A DNA stretch of 54,115 nt from Actinomycetota bacterium (GCA_012837825.1 DUQM01000021.1:1-54115), one strand, 5' to 3'. Shown: positions 49 to 10,255, numbered from the stretch's first letter. Numbers and translations: made by a program. The notes: generated from the sequence alone by a model not told the origin.

Positions 49-127
49 CGGGGTGTAGCGCAGCTTGGTTTAGCGCACCTGCTTTGGGAGCAGGGGGTCG
101 GAGGTTCAAATCCTCTCACCCCGACCA
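49..127 (+). tRNA. tRNA-Pro (anticodon TGG), CCA encoded
   Basis: Cloverleaf read by hand. Acceptor CGGGGTG/CACCCCG, D stem GCGC/GCGC, anticodon stem CCTGC/GCAGG with loop TTTGGGA, T arm GGAGG-TTCAAAT-CCTCT, discriminator A, CCA at 125-127. Confidence 0.9.
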
Positions 128-130
128 CTA

Positions 131-256
131 GGAAATTAACTCGATCCGACTGCTTTCCTTGTACTTTTCCCTCATTTCGCAGACCTTTGACATCCTATTT
201 AATAAATAGATTCTGTAAGAACACTCGCCAGTGCTTTGCGAGCGAAAGGATTTTTC
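131..256 (+). repeat. Rr repeat copy 0 (126 bp, identical to 1571-1696)
   Basis: ggaaattaactcgatccgactgc...gcgagcgaaaggatttttc matches 1571-1696 base for base (offset 1440). Begins 3 nt after the tRNA-Pro CCA. Confidence 0.95.
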
Positions 257-293
257 ATCCTCGCCACTTTGAGATCTGGTACGCCAAAAGCTA

Positions 294-323
294 AATATTG
301 GCGAGACTATTCTCGCCAATATT
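294..323. promoter_or_regulatory. perfect 13-bp inverted repeat (aatattggcgaga-ctat-tctcgccaatatt) upstream of the Fic gene
   Basis: Left arm 294-306 is the exact reverse complement of right arm 311-323. Carries the TGGCGA motif that recurs in every island repeat. Function (operator or hairpin) is inferred. Confidence 0.4.
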
Positions 324-377
324 GATTTATCTATGCCAAATGAAGTATAATGGCTATGTAAAAATGGAGGCGATGTT

Positions 378-1421
378 TTGAGAAAGTTCGATTATTTAAA
401 ATTGATGAATCTATCTTTACCGGTCAGCATATACCATACGATAGCACAAATTCACGAGTATAAAGGCAAACAAGAGCTTTATGTGATCAATTATCCGGAT
501 GTCTTAGAAAAGATGATAAACATCGCAAAAATACAGAGCGCAAAGTATTCTAATGCTATTGAAGGAATTTACACCAACGATACAAGACTGCTGGAGTTGA
601 TGAATAAGAAATCTGAACCCCGGAACAGAAACGAGGAAGAGATTGCCGGCTACAGACATGTGCTCGACATGGTACACGAAAATTATCCTTATATAGAATT
701 CAGCAAAAATGATATTCTAACCTTACACAATCAACTATATTCTTACTCCCATGTTAACCATAAGGGAAAGTTCAAGACGATGGATAATACCATTGTTGAA
801 GTCAACAGTATGGGTAATAAAAAAGTAAGATTCAAACCGGTAAGCAGTTTTGAAACGGAAAAGTATTTCGACGAAATGGTAGCAGCTTATAGAAAAGCTG
901 TTAAAGCAAACATACCACCGCTCATTTTGATACCTGTCCTTATCCATGATTTTTTGTGCATACATCCATTTGACGATGGAAACGGAAGAATGAGCAGAAT
1001 ATTAACACTTCTTCTTTTATATAAATTTGATTATTTTGTCGGAAGATATATAAGTATCGAGATGCTGATTGAGGAGAGCAAAGATTCTTACTATAAGGAG
1101 CTTCAAAACTCAAGCGAAAAATGGCACATAGGTGAGAATGACGAACTACCGTTTATTAAATATATGTTGGCAATTATTCTAAAAGCATATAGAGAGTGTG
1201 ATGATAGATTTAAGCTGATAGGAGAAAAGACATTATCATCACCGGAGAGAGTGCTGGCGGTTATTCAAAAATCTCTGGAGCCGCTTTCGAAGCGAGATCT
1301 TGTTATGCTTTGTCCGGACATATCTCAAAGGACAATAGAAAGAGCCTTAAAAGAATTGCAAGAGAACGAAAAAATAAAGCAGGTAGGCGGTGGACGCTCA
1401 ACAAGATATGTCAAGATTTAA
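378..1421 (+). CDS. Fic family protein (AMPylase-type) with N-terminal inhibitory helix motif and C-terminal winged HTH
   Basis: Fic core motif HPFDDGNGRMSR. Inhibitory motif S-x-x-x-E-G present as SNAIEG upstream of the core. C-terminal SKRDL...SQRTIERALKEL resembles wHTH. TTG start 7 nt after GGAGG. Confidence 0.85.
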   Translation: MRKFDYLKLMNLSLPVSIYHTIAQIHEYKGKQELYVINYPDVLEKMINIAKIQSAKYSNAIEGIYTNDTRLLELMNKKSEPRNRNEEEIAGYRHVLDMVHENYPYIEFSKNDILTLHNQLYSYSHVNHKGKFKTMDNTIVEVNSMGNKKVRFKPVSSFETEKYFDEMVAAYRKAVKANIPPLILIPVLIHDFLCIHPFDDGNGRMSRILTLLLLYKFDYFVGRYISIEMLIEESKDSYYKELQNSSEKWHIGENDELPFIKYMLAIILKAYRECDDRFKLIGEKTLSSPERVLAVIQKSLEPLSKRDLVMLCPDISQRTIERALKELQENEKIKQVGGGRSTRYVKI

Positions 1422-1481
1422 ATCGGATTTTCTGAAGACAAATTTCAAAAATCTAAGACATGCAATCTTTTATAAGAAGCT

Positions 1482-1696
1482 ATTTGAGAAATATGCCACC
1501 CATTGACTGTTCTCAAACCATTGATTTTGTTGGATTTCTTAAAAAGCCCTGTATCGCCACTCGCACCATTGGAAATTAACTCGATCCGACTGCTTTCCTT
1601 GTACTTTTCCCTCATTTCGCAGACCTTTGACATCCTATTTAATAAATAGATTCTGTAAGAACACTCGCCAGTGCTTTGCGAGCGAAAGGATTTTTC
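1482..1696 (+). repeat. full Rl+Rr repeat unit (Rl 1482-1569, Rr 1571-1696)
   Basis: Rl (atttgagaaata...ttgattttgttggatttcttaaaaagccctgtatcgccactcgcaccat) recurs at 3246-3334, 4805-4892 and 6462-6522. Rr is identical to 131-256. Confidence 0.9.
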
Positions 1697-1861
1697 CATT
1701 CAATTATCGAATTAGATAAATTTGAAATTACTGATATATCAAATAATAGAAAATGCAGTACATATTCCGGAGAATAGATTAGCAATTGGATGTATAACTC
1801 AACTCGGAACAATTAAACCGTCAGATTTCTTTTTATTGATGTATCCTGTACAGTCAAATAC

Positions 1862-1952
1862 AATTCCCACATTAAAATCTCTGCATTTCCCACATTATAA
1901 CATGGGTATTTTTTAATAATTCCCACATTAAAATCTTTACTTTTCCCACATT
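1862..1952 (+). promoter_or_regulatory. iteron-like direct repeats: two 35-bp units, four TTCCCACATT boxes, upstream of the ATPase gene
   Basis: aattcccacattaaaatct(c/t)t(g/a)c(a/t)tttcccacatt at 1862-1896 and 1918-1952. Boxes at 1864, 1887, 1920 and 1943. TAGAAT at 1959-1964 and GAGGTG before the start codon. Confidence 0.5.
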
Positions 1953-1973
1953 GCAGGGTAGAATGACAGTGAG

Positions 1974-3245
1974 GTGAATGTAATGATTAACTATATGCCA
2001 CGGATTATGGATGAACTGCTCAGGCGAGAGCTCGAATCTTTTGGAGCTGTATTGCTGGCCGGACCGAAATGGTGCGGCAAAACAACGACGGCAAAACAAA
2101 TAGCTAGAAGTGTATTAAATTTGCATTCTCCCGATCAACAGGAGACTTACTTGCAACTGGCAGATATAAAGCCATCTCTGCTGTTGGATGGGGAGCATCC
2201 CAGACTTATAGACGAATGGCAAATGGCCCCGCAGCTTTGGGATGCCATACGACACGATGTGGATGTAAAAAGCACCGAAGGACTTTATATTCTTACCGGC
2301 TCTACATCTGTGGATGAAACCAAAATAAAGCACTCGGGCGCAGGGCGAATTTCAAGATTAAAAATGTACACAATGAGTCTCTATGAGTCGCAAGACTCCA
2401 ATGGCACGGTTAGTCTTTCAGATTTGCTTGAAAATTCGACTAATGTGGCGGCGAAATCTGACTTAATGATAGAGGACTATGCGCGCCTCATCGTCCGTGG
2501 AGGATGGCCGAGCACTATTGGCAAAAGCAATGCAGTCGTACAACGTCAGATTGCCGGATATTGTGATGCTATTGTAAAGTCAGATATGTCAACCATAGAC
2601 GGTGTTTCTCGGGACGAACGCAAGGTAAGTTCGTTACTTCGTTCGTATTCCAGACATACTGCCACCCAAGCGCCGAAAACTACAATACAAAAAGATATTT
2701 TGCAGAACAACGAAATGATGCATATCAACACCTTGGATTCATATATCAATGCGCTCAACCACTTGTTCGTAATCGATGATGTGCCTGCCTGGAGCCCGTG
2801 GCTTAGATCGAAAACATCAATTCGCACCGCAGACACTCGTCACTTTATAGATCCGGCAATCGCTGCATATTTCCTGCAGGCCTACCCACAAACCTTGCTC
2901 GGCGATATAAATACCTTCGGTCTGCTTTTCGAATCTCTTGTCGTTCGCGACCTGCGCGTCTATGCCCAGGCTAACTATGGCCATGTTTCCCATTATCGAG
3001 ACAGTAGTGGACTTGAAGCGGATATTATAATCCATTTATCGGATGGACGGTGGGCAGCGGTGGAAGTAAAACTAGGAAGCAAGCAGGTGGATGCAGGAGC
3101 CGCAAATCTCCTTGCCTTAAAAGAAAAAATCGATTCGAGCAGAACCCCTGAGCCCTCTCTACTCATGATAATTACCGGAACAGAATATGCCTATACGAGA
3201 AGTGACGGAGTTGTAGTTGTGCCACTGGGATGCTTGAAGCCGTAG
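1974..3245 (+). CDS. AAA+ ATPase, AAA_14/DUF4143 family (COG1373-like)
   Basis: N-terminal IPRI-type segment followed by Walker A GPKWCGKTT. Walker B-like LIDEWQ. C-terminal region typical of DUF4143 proteins. Start could also be ATG 1983 or 1995. Confidence 0.75.
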   Translation: MNVMINYMPRIMDELLRRELESFGAVLLAGPKWCGKTTTAKQIARSVLNLHSPDQQETYLQLADIKPSLLLDGEHPRLIDEWQMAPQLWDAIRHDVDVKSTEGLYILTGSTSVDETKIKHSGAGRISRLKMYTMSLYESQDSNGTVSLSDLLENSTNVAAKSDLMIEDYARLIVRGGWPSTIGKSNAVVQRQIAGYCDAIVKSDMSTIDGVSRDERKVSSLLRSYSRHTATQAPKTTIQKDILQNNEMMHINTLDSYINALNHLFVIDDVPAWSPWLRSKTSIRTADTRHFIDPAIAAYFLQAYPQTLLGDINTFGLLFESLVVRDLRVYAQANYGHVSHYRDSSGLEADIIIHLSDGRWAAVEVKLGSKQVDAGAANLLALKEKIDSSRTPEPSLLMIITGTEYAYTRSDGVVVVPLGCLKP

Positions 3246-3334
3246 ATTTGAGAAATACCCTGCTTATTGACTGCCATCAAAACATTGATTTTGTCGGATT
3301 TCTTAAAAAAGCCCTGTATCGCCACTCGCACCAT
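3246..3334 (+). repeat. solo Rl repeat copy
   Basis: atttgagaaataccctgcttattgactgccatcaaaacattgattttgtcggatttcttaaaaaagccctgtatcgccactcgcaccat. Followed by unrelated sequence rather than Rr. Confidence 0.9.
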
Positions 3335-3422
3335 AACAGATGAGGGGTTTGATAGAATTCGTCAATTACCGTTCTTTTTATGCTTTAAAGCCATATACCC
3401 ACTTCAATCAGCGTACGCTTTT

Positions 3423-4667
3423 TTATTCATGTTCTTTTATATTCAATAACCAATTTGAGATATCTGCAATCCTGATTCCTTCGTACAGATATTCCGGATG
3501 ACCTGTATTTGCTATAAGAAGTTTAGGATATGCATCCTTTATTTGCAGAAGAGGCATAACTTCGCGTTCCAAAGTTGAGCGCTCCGTTATATTATCAGAA
3601 ACCTGAATATATAGCTTTTCACTCTGTTTTAACGCAATAAAGTCAACTTCTTTTTGATATAATTTCCCGACATATACCTCATACCCTCTGCGCATAAGTT
3701 CTACAGCAACCAAATTCTCATATGCTCTACCATAATCCATGTTCCTTTGCCCTAATATCGCATAACGGATACCCAAGTCGCAAAGATAGTATTTATCAAG
3801 TGTTTCCAGATATCTCTTACCTTTGATATCATAACGCTTTACTTTGTAAAACATGAAGGCATCACAGAGATGGTCAATATATTTTCCAATTGTAACGTGA
3901 TTGGTAGATAGCGAACCGGCGTTCAGTTTTTCACTGATTTTATTGGGTGATGTTAAATTTGAAATATTGTCCATCATGAATTCTGTCAGATGCTCCAATA
4001 TCGAAGTATAGGGGAGGCGATACTTATCTACCAAGTCCCTGTTTACAATCGTTTTATAAACATCATTTACATAAGCTATTCTGTCTCGGTTTGAGGTGTA
4101 TTCATACGATCCGGCAAGCCCTCCCATCAAAACATAGCTATCAAAAAGTTTCTTTCTGTCGGTTTCTTCTGAAAAATATATGCAGAATTCATGAAAACTG
4201 AAAGGGAAAATAGGTATTTCAATAAATCTGCCCGTGAATAAAGTTGTCAAGTCTGAACTCAGCAAAAAGGCATTGGAGCCCGTCAGATAGATATCATATT
4301 TTTTGCTATTGTGCAGACTGTTTACCGCCAATTCGAAATTTGAACAAAGCTGAACCTCATCAATAAAAACATAATTACATACGTTAGGCTTATGCAGTCC
4401 TTCTATATGATCATGAAGTGCCTTGTAATTTTTCAATTCATCATATTTTAAATCAAAAAAGTCTACATAAATGACATTGGCTTTGCTATCTTTATCAAGT
4501 ATAAAGTCAATAAATGCTCGCATTAATTCTGATTTTCCGGAACGCCTGATTCCCGTAATTATCTTTATATCCGGAGTATTTAGAAGGCCTTTCAGCCTAT
4601 TTAAATAGGCTGTTCGTTCTATATATTTCATCCGGGCTCTCGCTTTCAAAACTTGAATTAAATTCAT
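3423..4667 (-). CDS. AAA+ ATPase, AAA_14/DUF4143 family (COG1373-like), second divergent paralogue
   Basis: Walker A GIRRSGKS, Walker B FIDEVQ, and overall architecture as for DUF4143 ATPases. Convergent with 1974-3245. The true start may be the internal Met at 4631 (MKYIERTAYLNRL). Confidence 0.75.
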   Translation of the reverse strand: MNLIQVLKARARMKYIERTAYLNRLKGLLNTPDIKIITGIRRSGKSELMRAFIDFILDKDSKANVIYVDFFDLKYDELKNYKALHDHIEGLHKPNVCNYVFIDEVQLCSNFELAVNSLHNSKKYDIYLTGSNAFLLSSDLTTLFTGRFIEIPIFPFSFHEFCIYFSEETDRKKLFDSYVLMGGLAGSYEYTSNRDRIAYVNDVYKTIVNRDLVDKYRLPYTSILEHLTEFMMDNISNLTSPNKISEKLNAGSLSTNHVTIGKYIDHLCDAFMFYKVKRYDIKGKRYLETLDKYYLCDLGIRYAILGQRNMDYGRAYENLVAVELMRRGYEVYVGKLYQKEVDFIALKQSEKLYIQVSDNITERSTLEREVMPLLQIKDAYPKLLIANTGHPEYLYEGIRIADISNWLLNIKEHE

Positions 4668-4804
4668 TTTTCGAAACCACTATAGCATACACTTTCGAAA
4701 TATCAATAATATTTTACTTTTGAAATCAAAAACTCCCACTCCGCCTTTTATATAGTTGCATATTTTCAAAATCTACCGCTATACTCTTTTGGGAGGAGGG
4801 GGTT

Positions 4805-5010
4805 ATTTAAGGAACATGCTGCCTATTGACTGCCATCAAACCATTGATTTTGTCGGATTTCTTAAAAAGTCCTATATCGCCAATCATGCCATTGGAAAGT
4901 AGTTGTATTTAATTACTTTCCTTTTATTTTTTCTTCATTTACGTTTATACCACCAATTTAATGACCAAGCCCTGTAAGAATACTCGCCACTACTTTGCGG
5001 GCGAAAGGAT
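4805..5010 (+). repeat. diverged Rl+Rr repeat unit (Rl 4805-4892, Rr-like 4893-5010)
   Basis: The Rl part is near-identical in its centre (attgactgccatcaaaccattgattttgtcggatttcttaaaaag). The Rr part is conserved mainly in its last ~45 nt (ctgtaagaatactcgccactactttgcgggcgaaaggat). Confidence 0.8.
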
Positions 5011-5039
5011 ATATAAATATCCCCCCTAAGCTTCGCTTT

Positions 5040-5092
5040 GTGGCGATATAAATGGCGATATATTTGCCTTATATGGCAATATATTCTATAAT
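5040..5092 (+). promoter_or_regulatory. putative promoter (TTGCCT-17-TATAAT) overlapped by three (T)GGC(G/A)ATATA direct-repeat boxes
   Basis: Boxes at 5041-5050, 5053-5062 and 5074-5083. -35 TTGCCT at 5064-5069 and -10 TATAAT at 5087-5092. GAGGTGA lies before ATG 5111. Confidence 0.45.
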
Positions 5093-5110
5093 ACAGCTGA
5101 GGTGATACTT

Positions 5111-6460
5111 ATGAACAAATATATTGAATCGGAGACTCTTGAACTGAAAAGCAAATATACAGACAGCTCTGTTCGTGATATTGTCGCATTTTTAAACTCA
5201 TCCGGAGGCACTATATATTTTGGTATAGCTGATGATGGCTCCATTAAGGGTGTAGAAAAAATTGATGAGACACTCCGAAAAATTGCTGATATCGTTTCCT
5301 CGCAGATAGAGCCTAATCCTGCCGATTTAATCAGTACCAGAATAATATACGAAGAATCAAAGCCGATTGTTGAAGTCGTTGTTTCAAAAGGCTTCTTTCC
5401 TTTATACTGCATCAAAAAGTACGGTTTCTCACAAGTGGGCTGCCCCATAAGAATCGGCACCAGTTGCAAGGAAATGGAGCCGGCTCAGATTCAAGCGCGT
5501 TATCAAAAAAGATTTGAGTCTTCCAGAGACTATATGACCGCAATACCGGTCAGATATGGAGTTATTTCTTTTAACACGCTACAGATAGCGCTCTCAAATC
5601 AAGGCTATCACATAAACAGAAATGCATTCGAAACAAACTATAGTCTAAGAAATAAGGATGGAGATTACAATTTGTTGGCTGGATTGCTTTCCGACCAAAA
5701 CATAATTTCCCTCATCATCGTGAAATTTCGAGGAAAAGATAAATCATCAATATCCGAAAGAACAGATTTTGGCCGAACATCACTGATAACGGCATATTAC
5801 AATATGAAGAACCGTCTGATTTCCGAAAATATTTGTATGAGCGATACGACGTTCCGCCCGAGAAAAGATACCTACTTGTATGACATAGATGCAGTTGATG
5901 AAGCTCTAATTAATGCGTTGGTACACAATGATTGGTCGATAAGTGAACCACTGGTTTCTATGTTCAACGACAGACTTGAAATAATTTCCTATGGAGGACT
6001 TCCCTACAAGCAAACAAAAGAGCAATTTCTTAAAGGTGTAAGTATTCCGCGCAACAGTGCTTTGATGCGCATTTTTCAAGATCTGGATATTACTGAACAT
6101 ACCGGGCATGGTATCCCCAAAATAGTCGAGTGCTACGGAAGAGAAGTATTTGATATTGCAGATAATTATATTAATGTGATAATACCGTTTGACCCGACTG
6201 TTCGAGATAATCATGGCAGCATAAGTGGCAATATAATTGGCGATATAAGTGTCAGTATAAATCAAAACTTAACAGATGGAGAGCGAGCGGTGCTTGAACT
6301 ATTGGTATTTAATCCAAAGACAACTCAAACTCAAGCCGCAACAACAATAGGTGTATCTAAACGTACAGCTTCAAGAGTCTTCGCTTCTTTGCGAGAGAGA
6401 GGTTATATTGTACGTGAAGGCTCAAATAAAAACGGAATCTGGAAAGTACTTAAATCCTGA
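5111..6460 (+). CDS. Schlafen-like AlbA_2 domain / HATPase_c_4 / C-terminal wHTH protein (COG2865-type putative regulator, often annotated as RecG-like)
   Basis: N-terminus ESETLELKSKY...VAFLNSSGGTIYFGIADDGSIKGV is the AlbA_2 signature. Central ALINALVHNDWS...GHGIPKIVE. C-terminal MarR-like wHTH (ERAVLELL...GVSKRTASRVFASLRERGYI). The ORF opens at GTG 5102, but ATG 5111 has the better RBS spacing. Confidence 0.75.
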   Translation: MNKYIESETLELKSKYTDSSVRDIVAFLNSSGGTIYFGIADDGSIKGVEKIDETLRKIADIVSSQIEPNPADLISTRIIYEESKPIVEVVVSKGFFPLYCIKKYGFSQVGCPIRIGTSCKEMEPAQIQARYQKRFESSRDYMTAIPVRYGVISFNTLQIALSNQGYHINRNAFETNYSLRNKDGDYNLLAGLLSDQNIISLIIVKFRGKDKSSISERTDFGRTSLITAYYNMKNRLISENICMSDTTFRPRKDTYLYDIDAVDEALINALVHNDWSISEPLVSMFNDRLEIISYGGLPYKQTKEQFLKGVSIPRNSALMRIFQDLDITEHTGHGIPKIVECYGREVFDIADNYINVIIPFDPTVRDNHGSISGNIIGDISVSINQNLTDGERAVLELLVFNPKTTQTQAATTIGVSKRTASRVFASLRERGYIVREGSNKNGIWKVLKS

Positions 6461-6461
6461 G

Positions 6462-6522
6462 ATTTTTGTTCTTTTGATTTTGTCGGTTTCTTGAAAAAGC
6501 CCTGTATCGCCACTCGCACCAT
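6462..6522 (+). repeat. truncated Rl repeat copy at the right end of the island
   Basis: ttgattttgtcggtttcttgaaaaagccctgtatcgccactcgcaccat. The 5' part of Rl is shortened. Followed by unique AT-rich sequence and the DapA-family gene. Confidence 0.85.
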
Positions 6523-9871: not shown

Positions 9872-9957
9872 GCGAGTGTGGCGGAACTGGCAGACGCGCT
9901 AGCCTTAGGAGCTAGTAGGTAACACCTGTGGGGGTTCGATTCCCTCCACTCGCACCA
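9872..9957 (+). tRNA. tRNA-Leu (anticodon TAG), long variable arm, CCA encoded
   Basis: Acceptor GCGAGTG/CACTCGC, anticodon stem CTAGC/GCTAG with loop CTTAGGA, long variable arm, T arm GGGGG-TTCGATT-CCCTC. Confidence 0.9.
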
Positions 9958-10255
9958 GAGCCAAAGGAATACATAATTTGACATCCTTTCACTGAAAAAT
10001 TTGCCTTCAAAAGTTCTGTTTTCGTGCTCCACACAAATTAACCGTATCCGCGAAGAATAATCATAAATACATTAAAAATATAGACAAGGTCCGGTTTGTA
10101 TTTTTATTTAAATTTATTTATAATAAGTTGTTTAATTTTAGGCACGATGAATTTTATATATTTTATTTCATATTATATTCAAACGGCTTATAGACAAGAT
10201 GGCTTATAAATGTTTATGTTTTGGATTCCATATTATCTAAGGAGGGCGAGAAAAG

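Follow-up and report, generated by a model that had tools for sequence, protein, structure and literature searches.

A tRNA-Pro-anchored array of single-gene, recombinase-less candidate defence cassettes bounded by attP-like arms in an uncultured biogas-reactor bacterium

The window analysed here is a 54,115-nucleotide stretch of DNA from an Actinomycetota bacterium (GCA_012837825.1 DUQM01000021.1:1-54115), an uncultured, low-GC inhabitant of biogas reactors, several metagenome contigs of which are 99.9% identical over the region of interest. Near the start of the window lies a tRNA-Pro(UGG) gene (49-127, plus strand, found by both ARAGORN and Rfam). The 6.4 kb which separate it from a DapA-family gene (128-6522) consist of four single genes, called below cassettes 1 to 4 (c1 to c4), delimited by copies of two repeated sequences, Rl and Rr. 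The order is tRNA-Pro, Rr, a Fic gene, Rl|Rr, an ATPase gene, a solo Rl, a second ATPase gene in reverse orientation, Rl|Rr, a gene with Schlafen and winged helix-turn-helix (wHTH) domains, and a last Rl. Ham1, RNase PH, racemase and other core genes reside upstream of the tRNA, and housekeeping genes follow the array without interruption through the window.

All repeat copies lie on the plus strand, and their junctions are numbered J1 to J5. J1 (128-256) connects the tRNA, through a CTA linker, to the first Rr (131-256), the left end of cassette 1, which is laid out as the P' arm of a phage attachment site and carries at its start a decayed GGAAA...TTTCC hairpin. In J2, Rl (1436-1568), the P-arm-like right end of cassette 1, terminates with a mimic of a tRNA 3' end (...CCCTGTATCGCCACTCGCACCA), and is followed by the Rr (1571-1696) which forms the left end of cassette 2, and is identical to the Rr of J1 at 126 of 126 positions (E 2e-62, repeat tools and BLAST). 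J3 is a solo Rl (3246-3334), abutting the c2 stop codon and not followed by Rr. J4 is a diverged junction, in which Rl (4762-4892) ends with ...ATCGCCAATCATGCCA, and Rr (4894-5010) includes a terminator-like hairpin of 12 pairs plus T-run (4894-4921) and a conserved tail (CTGTAAGAATACTCGCC...GCGAAAGGA). J5, attR-like, is a 5'-truncated Rl (6474-6522) ending with ...CACTCGCACCA. The full junction spans 1482-1696. Identity is 86.5% for the solo Rl (E 5e-25), 75% with indels for the diverged junction (4805-5010, E 6e-37), and 94% for the last Rl (E 1e-14). A first inspection of the DNA made without database searches (the sequence-only reading) had proposed this layout, with every break placed right after ...CCA, and repeat tools, BLAST and direct reading bear it out at 5 of the 5 junctions (gaccaCTAGGAAATT, caccaTTGGAAATT, caccaTAACAG, tgccaTTGGAAAGT and caccaTCACTT). 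Two limits had to be revised. The last Rl had been started at 6462, and the data support 6474. The stretch 1482-1696 is indeed repeated, but comparison with the copies found in other genomes places the start of Rl approximately 45 nt further to the left both in J2 (about 1436, the extension being 1436-1481) and in J4 (4762), so that a complete Rl|Rr junction, given as 215 bp at first, measures some 260 bp. Neither the other 47 kb of the window nor the 10 kb upstream contain further Rl or Rr copies.

Each cassette hosts one gene, and none of the four encodes a recombinase, as had been noticed at first sight; the names initially given to the genes agree with Pfam and PADLOC. The c1 gene (378-1421, plus strand) encodes a Fic protein with a C-terminal wHTH domain (PADLOC SoFic, 6e-37). 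The c2 gene (1974-3245, plus strand) and the c3 gene (3423-4667, minus strand, within a cassette spanning 3423-4706) both encode AAA_14 plus DUF4143 ATPases (PADLOC PDC-S01, 2e-66 and 6e-141, respectively). The c4 product (5102-6460, plus strand) combines, according to the domain scan, SLFN_AlbA_2, HATPase_c_4 and a MarR-type wHTH. All four are single-gene defence candidates (SoFic, PDC-S01 twice, Schlafen-like). Those of c1 to c3 match curated PADLOC defence models; c4 has weak PADLOC matches only, yet the Schlafen/AlbA_2 domain is present. Another AAA_14/DUF4143 gene is found outside the array, about 10 kb upstream of tRNA-Pro (L001, 1-70).

A sigma-70-like promoter is predicted for each gene, and operator-like repeats for c1, c2 and c4. 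On the plus strand, a TTGATT/TATAAT promoter (322-351) precedes c1, and a perfect 13-bp palindrome (294-323) extends over its -35 region; in front of c2, four copies of TTCCCACATT (1862-1952) accompany a TTTACT/TAGAAT promoter (whole region 1862-1964); c4 is headed by GGCGATATA repeats (5040-5062) and a TTGCCT/TATAAT promoter (whole region 5040-5092), and the same repeats recur within the c4 reading frame (6213-6259). The c3 promoter is TTGATA/TATAGT (4679-4706, minus strand). The four cassettes are self-contained single-gene modules, unlike promoterless cassettes. The operator-like repeats, along with the fact that the proteins all end in wHTH domains, suggest that the genes may be autoregulated. 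The GC content of the cassettes ranges from 35% to 46%, the highest value being that of c2, against 37% for the window.

Precise insertion of the array at the 3' end of tRNA-Pro, as the sequence-only reading had proposed, is documented by empty sites. Two relatives, the metagenome-assembled genomes L009 and L012, retrieved through their DapA-family neighbour (82% and 73% protein identity, respectively), share the synteny, carry an identical tRNA-Pro, and have no cassettes. In L009 the tRNA ends with ...GACCA and continues directly with TCACTTTAAGTTTAAATCTTTTAA (TCACTTTAAGTTTAAATC...), which is the window sequence from 6523 onwards, after the last Rl. The segment 6523-6585 (plus strand) is therefore the original tRNA-Pro trailer with its hairpin terminator, and at the right boundary of the array (Rl|TCACTTTAAG) non-homologous sequences meet at the precise point where the tRNA used to end. 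It follows that 128-6522 is inserted DNA, delimited on the left by the beginning of Rr, and on the right by the terminal ...ACCA of Rl. Independent evidence that the tRNA end serves as an attachment site in this clade comes from L012, where a 91-bp direct duplication, starting at the T-loop, with the last 20 nt of tRNA-Pro, brackets a 75-nt remnant. The duplicated segments look like the attL and attR of an integrated element almost fully deleted. An element of about 75 nt, conserved and GC-rich (GATTTGAAAGGACGGA.TGAG...GAGTCCGCGGCTCTGCAGCGA.CC.AAGG), follows the tRNA-Pro terminator both in L012 (7955-8045) and L009 (5100-5200), on the minus strand of the two loci. It has no similarity to Rl or Rr, and is missing in the window.

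As to the anatomy of the arms, Rl matches perfectly, over its last 12 nt (CCACTCGCACCA), the end of the tRNA-Leu(UAG) of the same genome (window 9946-9957). Moreover, the last 25 nt of the Rl found in a Tissierellia genome (AAGTCCTGT-ATCGC-CACTCGCACCA) align to the T-loop-to-CCA segment of clostridial tRNA-Pro (AAGTCCTGTCACTCCGACCA) with one 5-nt insertion (ATCGC), at a score reached by 0 of 500 shuffled sequences. Rl therefore ends in a decayed copy of a tRNA 3' end, as does the distal att site of elements which integrate into tRNA genes. An 11-mer located 20 nt downstream of tRNA-Leu (TTTGACATCCT, 9977-9987) recurs in Rr (1626-1636) at a different spacing, probably by chance.

Rr begins 2-3 nt after CCA with a hairpin followed by a T-run, which has 12 pairs in J4 and 10 perfect pairs in the L025 junction, and is decayed in J1, J2 and L016. 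Two compensatory pairs distinguish J4 from L025, and 84% of the cells pair, versus 40-63% when the partner strand is slid, figures which are statistically weak as they come from four sequences. Still, any element which lands on a tRNA 3' end would have to bring along a terminator in just this position. A direct repeat, CCTGTAnnnnCACTCGC, occurs at the end of Rl and in the tail of Rr, at a score of marginal significance, reached by 3 of 1000 shuffles in L025, 47 of 1000 in J4 and 289 of 1000 in J2. The shortened junction found in Clostridiaceae (see below) is the product of a deletion between the two CCTGTAnnnnCACTCGC copies. Terminal inverted repeats are not found in Rl or Rr. DNA folds of the whole Rl|Rr junction (both strands for J2, plus strand for J4) were no better than those of shuffles (z from -0.7 to +0.1), in agreement with the early remark that attC-type hairpins are missing. 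As RNA the junction has no significant fold either. Since folds are shuffle-like and no Rfam match was obtained, the notion that the junction is a structured RNA or single-stranded DNA site was discarded, and the hairpin at the start of Rr alone stands. A coding role was discarded too: neither an 84-aa minus-strand open reading frame (ORF) nor a plus-strand micro-ORF of 28 aa is preserved from copy to copy, and J3, J4 and L016 have frameshifting indels.

Copies of Rl and Rr exist in other genomes too, and are flanked by defence-type genes at every locus seen. The most informative one resides in the Anaerolineaceae metagenome-assembled genome (MAG) AnMBR.bin511 (Chloroflexota; loci L016/L026), which hosts a whole Rr-Fic-Rl unit 85% identical at the nucleotide level over 1.4 kb. 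A profile built from three junctions was used to place its ends: the match begins at model position 94, the GG of the Rr GGAAA, and stops at the end of Rl. The unit has a GC content of 39%, the flanks of 50-52%, and no tRNA was found within the 17-kb locus; the left flank, CCA in the arrays, is GGGG in L016. Judged from sequence comparison, the Rr-gene-Rl unit is portable between phyla. A relaxed, degenerate Rl pattern matched three of the 185,579 species genomes of GTDB, once in each: the window genome, a Tissierellia MAG and a Clostridiaceae MAG. In the Tissierellia contig the Rl|Rr junction is complete and shares 75% identity with J2; an AbiEi gene in reverse orientation lies to its left. 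In the Clostridiaceae contigs, Rl is fused to the tail of Rr ahead of a Fic gene, and lies between defence-type genes. With the strict Rl pattern there were no matches in the genome collection, and in JGI metagenomes the same strain alone was recovered. Rl and Rr are thus rare, low-copy sequences, which occur in digester bacteria of four lineages or more.

The two Clostridiaceae loci (L018 and L024) are 97% identical, and differ to the left of Rl. One version carries a DUF4143 ATPase gene. In the other, HEPN-like and truncated HATPase_c_4-wHTH genes are accompanied by a tRNA-Pro copy, at which the L024 array begins. Two inverted tRNA-Pro(UGG) copies, at 2720-2795 (plus strand) and 6089-6164 (minus strand), bracket a small defence island in L024. 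One of them, which has an A:C mismatch in the acceptor stem, is absent from the L018 version. Directly after the extra tRNA-Pro, a small ORF (about 5800-6088, minus strand) encodes an R-x4-H HEPN-like motif (IRNAFAHG, read by eye).

The cassette genes travel also without the arms. Fic homologues are some 8000 at E<=1e-40, and the best 120 listed are all at least 80% identical, proteins from Streptococcus (pneumoniae), Fusobacterium and Anaerococcus being among them; within these 120, conservation across phyla is unusually high for a defence-type gene. The c1 operator/promoter region accompanies the Fic gene in Fusobacterium and others. In most contexts gene and operator alone are shared: Rl and Rr are missing around the Fusobacterium homologue (L022), around the Fic homologues of L027-L030, and around those of the viral contigs L040-L048. 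In L027-L030, an element encoding three large serine recombinases in tandem splits an ABC-transporter gene, and has the Fic gene at its end. Similarly, L033, which hosts the closest c2 homologue, has the gene and its conserved operator region in common with the window, and lacks Rl and Rr.

How the array was assembled may be partly read in the divergence of its repeats. Pairwise identity within the window amounts to 82-87% among Rl copies, and to 74% between the two Rr types. Compared to the Tissierellia and Anaerolineaceae copies, the values are 80-90% for Rl and 71-78% for Rr. Divergence within the array equals divergence from foreign copies, and the junctions are therefore not duplicates formed in situ, except for the identical Rr of J1 and J2. 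That Rr apart, the junctions are old, distinct alleles of one family, which points to the bringing together of cassettes of separate origin.

The hypothesis that best accounts for these data, to which we give about an even chance of being correct, is that the array is a tandem accretion of four mini integrative elements devoid of integrase, similar to cis-mobilizable elements (CIMEs), with arms of the lambda attP type, and that these four units are either moved in trans or fossil. According to this hypothesis, the unit would be made of Rr as left arm (about 125 bp), one self-promoted, probably autoregulated defence gene, and Rl as right arm (about 90-130 bp). The terminator hairpin of Rr would replace the trailer terminator which the tRNA loses upon integration, and the last 25-40 nt of Rl, ending with ...ACCA, would be the decayed copy of the tRNA 3' end. 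The joined Rl|Rr would correspond in size and layout to a lambda-type attP, with a P arm, a tRNA-like core and a P' arm. Integration into the tRNA 3' end, by a crossover at or next to ACCA(T), would leave tRNA plus Rr on one side and Rl plus chromosome on the other. Further integrations, or the integration of a multi-cassette circle, would account for the complete Rl|Rr junctions which separate the units. A tyrosine integrase targeting tRNA genes is the most likely recombinase, and would either have to act in trans from elsewhere or be no longer present; homologous recombination between Rl or Rr copies would later shuffle, duplicate and swap cassettes. The assignment of attL to tRNA plus Rr, of attR to Rl plus chromosome, and of attP-like sites to the internal junctions had been made in the sequence-only reading, and is still the reading best supported. 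In addition to the empty sites, the tRNA-like end and the occurrence of the unit in another phylum, the hypothesis is favored by the junctions found in Tissierellia and Clostridiaceae, the hairpin plus T-run maintained in Rr, the L012 duplication, the different GC content of the cassettes, the foreign-level divergence of the copies found in the array, and the documented accretion of CIMEs.

Several data weigh against this hypothesis. A recombinase, which the sequence-only reading expected near the array or other copies, was found neither in the 10 kb upstream nor among the downstream ORFs scanned up to the end of the window (all except four large ones), and in the four lineages no integrase or recombinase gene lies within about 8-10 kb of any junction. 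Searches of genomes, metagenomes, viral contigs, plasmids and phages did not detect any autonomous relative in which Rl and Rr are combined with an integrase, though diverged relatives could be missed by the exact patterns used: viral contigs gave no real match to Rl or Rr (L035 is a chance match inside a GC-rich ORF), and plasmid and phage BLAST searches returned nothing. Leaving aside a doubtful c1 duplicate in L031 (see below), the same four cassettes are found on all contigs of the window's species, with no strain polymorphism, and no direct sign of current mobility was seen in that population. The gene-content variation breaking at CCA which had been anticipated is provided by the empty sites of L009 and L012, and not by variation within the species; in turn, the breakpoint between L018 and L024 is located some 25 nt into Rl, where mismatches are confined to roughly the first 25 nt. 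At the window junctions, the ends of tRNA-Pro and Rl have ACCA(T) alone in common, 4-5 nt, and the shared stretch extends to 6 nt (ACCATC) in the sole case of the L025-type junction. In place of the TT of J2 and J4, CTA is found in J1, and cassette 3 is devoid of Rr. Finally, the Anaerolineaceae copy sits at a non-tRNA site, and its left flank exhibits no core-like sequence.

A rival hypothesis is that no dedicated recombinase exists. Rl and Rr would be conserved linker modules, made of a decayed tRNA fragment and a terminator, which accompany defence genes and work as portable homology; cassettes would be added, swapped or duplicated by homologous recombination following DNA uptake, and the first entry at the tRNA would be due to homologous recombination through the tRNA itself, or to an illegitimate event. 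Homologous recombination clearly acts on the Rl/Rr repeats, as three observations indicate. The L018/L024 breakpoint falls inside Rl. The Rr of J1 and J2 are 100% identical, compared to 74-87% for other copies, as expected from gene conversion or unequal crossover. In L031 (GCA_040766485.1, same species) c1 is apparently followed by a tandem duplicate, c1', bounded by the repeats, though, given the abundance of 1-nt indels in it, the second copy is possibly an assembly artefact. The c3 gene and the second c1 copy of L031 (12877-14085 and 16555-17105) are split by many single-base indels, typical of unpolished long-read assemblies, and genes called on this assembly warrant caution. The absence of recombinase genes near any copy fits the same scheme, and so does the second, imperfect tRNA-Pro heading the L024 array, which might reflect the import of an entire block anchored to a tRNA. 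Against it stand the right boundary, where non-homologous DNA is joined precisely at the former tRNA 3' end, and the Anaerolineaceae unit, which, with the same two ends, is embedded in unrelated GC-rich DNA; besides, homologous recombination alone leaves the attP-like size of the arms and their tRNA-mimic end unexplained. As a complete account, we deem the hypothesis possible, though doubtful; as a process acting on the array next to site-specific accretion, homologous recombination is part of our preferred scenario. The serial integration first proposed is accordingly supported in part, for insertion, att layout and portability, while the informative polymorphism fits homologous recombination.

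Alternatively, the units may have been moved by end-specific transposition at tRNA 3' ends, carried out in trans by an HUH transposase (of the IS200/IS605-PATE or IS91/ISCR-like type) or a Tn7-like machinery, Rr and Rl being the left and right ends of the element. The ends are indeed distinct and not inverted, no clear target duplication is seen beyond ACCA, 2-3 variable nt (TT, TC, CTA) are found between units, one end has a hairpin, and the Anaerolineaceae copy is not at a tRNA. Yet a clear hairpin is present at the left end only, whereas IS200/605-type elements have one at both ends, and terminal inverted repeats are missing. No gene encoding Y1/Y2, TnsB or rve proteins is linked to a junction, the rve genes of L016 being more than 4 kb away and similar to those of insertion sequences, and the tRNA-like block of Rl is better explained as an att identity block. 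All this makes transposition quite improbable. Concatenation by template switching of a reverse transcriptase at CCA, a notion raised by the CCA plus 2-3 nt joints, was set aside: the would-be 5' end has no promoter ahead of it, a terminator would stand first in the unit, and no reverse transcriptase is present. Lastly, that Rl and Rr are dispersed repeats of the repetitive extragenic palindrome (REP) or miniature inverted-repeat transposable element (MITE) type, or purely regulatory intergenic sequences, in one ordinary four-gene island is very improbable and largely refuted, since, despite the fixation of the array in the population and an Rr hairpin resembling a plain terminator, the repeats have no terminal inverted repeats, are not scattered through the genome, as this view had been expected to entail (no extra copy in the 64 kb covered, one match in each of three GTDB genomes, always beside defence-type cargo), and have boundaries which coincide with those of the insertions in two unrelated genomes.

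A bolder version of tandem accretion may be envisaged, in which Rl|Rr is the site of a live system, integron-like but mechanistically distinct. Circles reduced to one self-regulated defence gene and an attP of about 260 bp which mimics a tRNA would be captured in trans at tRNA-Pro by a remote recombinase, and be exchanged between Bacillota and Chloroflexota in anaerobic digesters. We consider it rather unlikely that the system is active in these terms. If it were, it would help explain the spread of orphan single-gene defence modules, such as COG1373-type ATPases, Schlafen/AlbA_2 regulators and Fic proteins. DUF4143 ATPase, Schlafen/AlbA_2-wHTH and Fic-wHTH modules are very widespread, and usually reside alone between core genes, with no visible vehicle. 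At the locus described here a subset of them is packaged singly, with conserved att-like arms on either side, forms a stack next to a tRNA, and is common to different phyla. Were the arms active, they would represent a minimal, recombinase-free carrier of defence genes, and a sequence handle to find further cassettes and the recombinase. Were they fossil, the locus would be a clean example of integrative elements eroded to cargo plus att sites, which later became substrates of recombination.

The array shares features with several known systems. Similarly to integron cassettes, the units are small, mostly single-gene and recombinase-less, are arranged in tandem at one site, and would be moved in trans. 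In contrast to integrons, attC-type palindromes, IntI, attI and Pc are all missing, the array is headed by a tRNA, itself preceded by core genes, every gene is provided with a promoter, operators are present, and one gene (c3) is reversed. Staphylococcal cassette chromosome (SCC) and pseudo-SCC islands are found in tandem, delimited by repeats, at staphylococcal rlmH (orfX); several lack ccr, and recombinases act in trans. The array resembles them as a set of tandem repeat-delimited elements at one chromosomal attB. SCC elements differ because they rely on the serine recombinases CcrAB/C, have direct repeats of about 15-20 bp, are much larger, and target the end of a protein-coding gene rather than a tRNA. 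The cargo also recalls defence islands and tRNA-linked hot spots, as it consists entirely of candidate anti-phage genes beside a tRNA, with AbiEi and HEPN genes in related loci. Yet the genes of the array are individually bracketed by att-like arms, which is not a general property described for defence islands.

The junctions also resemble attP sites of the lambda/P4 type. They are bipartite, span approximately 215-260 bp, and have one arm ending in a copy of the T-loop-to-CCA region of a tRNA; as in that type, the proximal junction preserves an intact tRNA, the distal one a fragment resembling a tRNA. Tyrosine integrases that insert into tRNA genes reportedly fall into sublocation classes, set out by Williams in 2002. 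The attP and attB cores of tyrosine integrases are usually identical over 6-8 bp or more. In the array, the tRNA-like block is decayed by substitutions and the 5-nt insertion, identity to the host tRNA is limited to 4-6 nt, no integrase gene is adjacent, and arm-type binding repeats are not demonstrable.

The statement of the sequence-only reading that no described cassette system has this site architecture goes too far: attP sites of the lambda type look like this, being bipartite, some 250 bp long and provided with a distal arm which ends in a tRNA copy, and the accretion of CIMEs is known (PMC5704250). CIMEs are att-flanked, integrase-less units found in tandem accretions of integrative elements (Pavlovic 2004; Bellanger 2011; PMC5704250). 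As in CIMEs, the units of the array have att-type flanks and lack integration and transfer genes, are arranged head-to-tail at one attB located in the 3' end of a gene, and are separated by attP-like hybrid sites. CIMEs, in turn, are decayed remnants of several kb, located beside a related integrative and conjugative, or integrative and mobilizable, element which supplies the integrase. Here, no autonomous partner with the same att sites is in view, the array is made of four units of 1.4-1.8 kb, and what sets it apart is that each unit carries just one defence gene, and that the unit occurs in another phylum as well.

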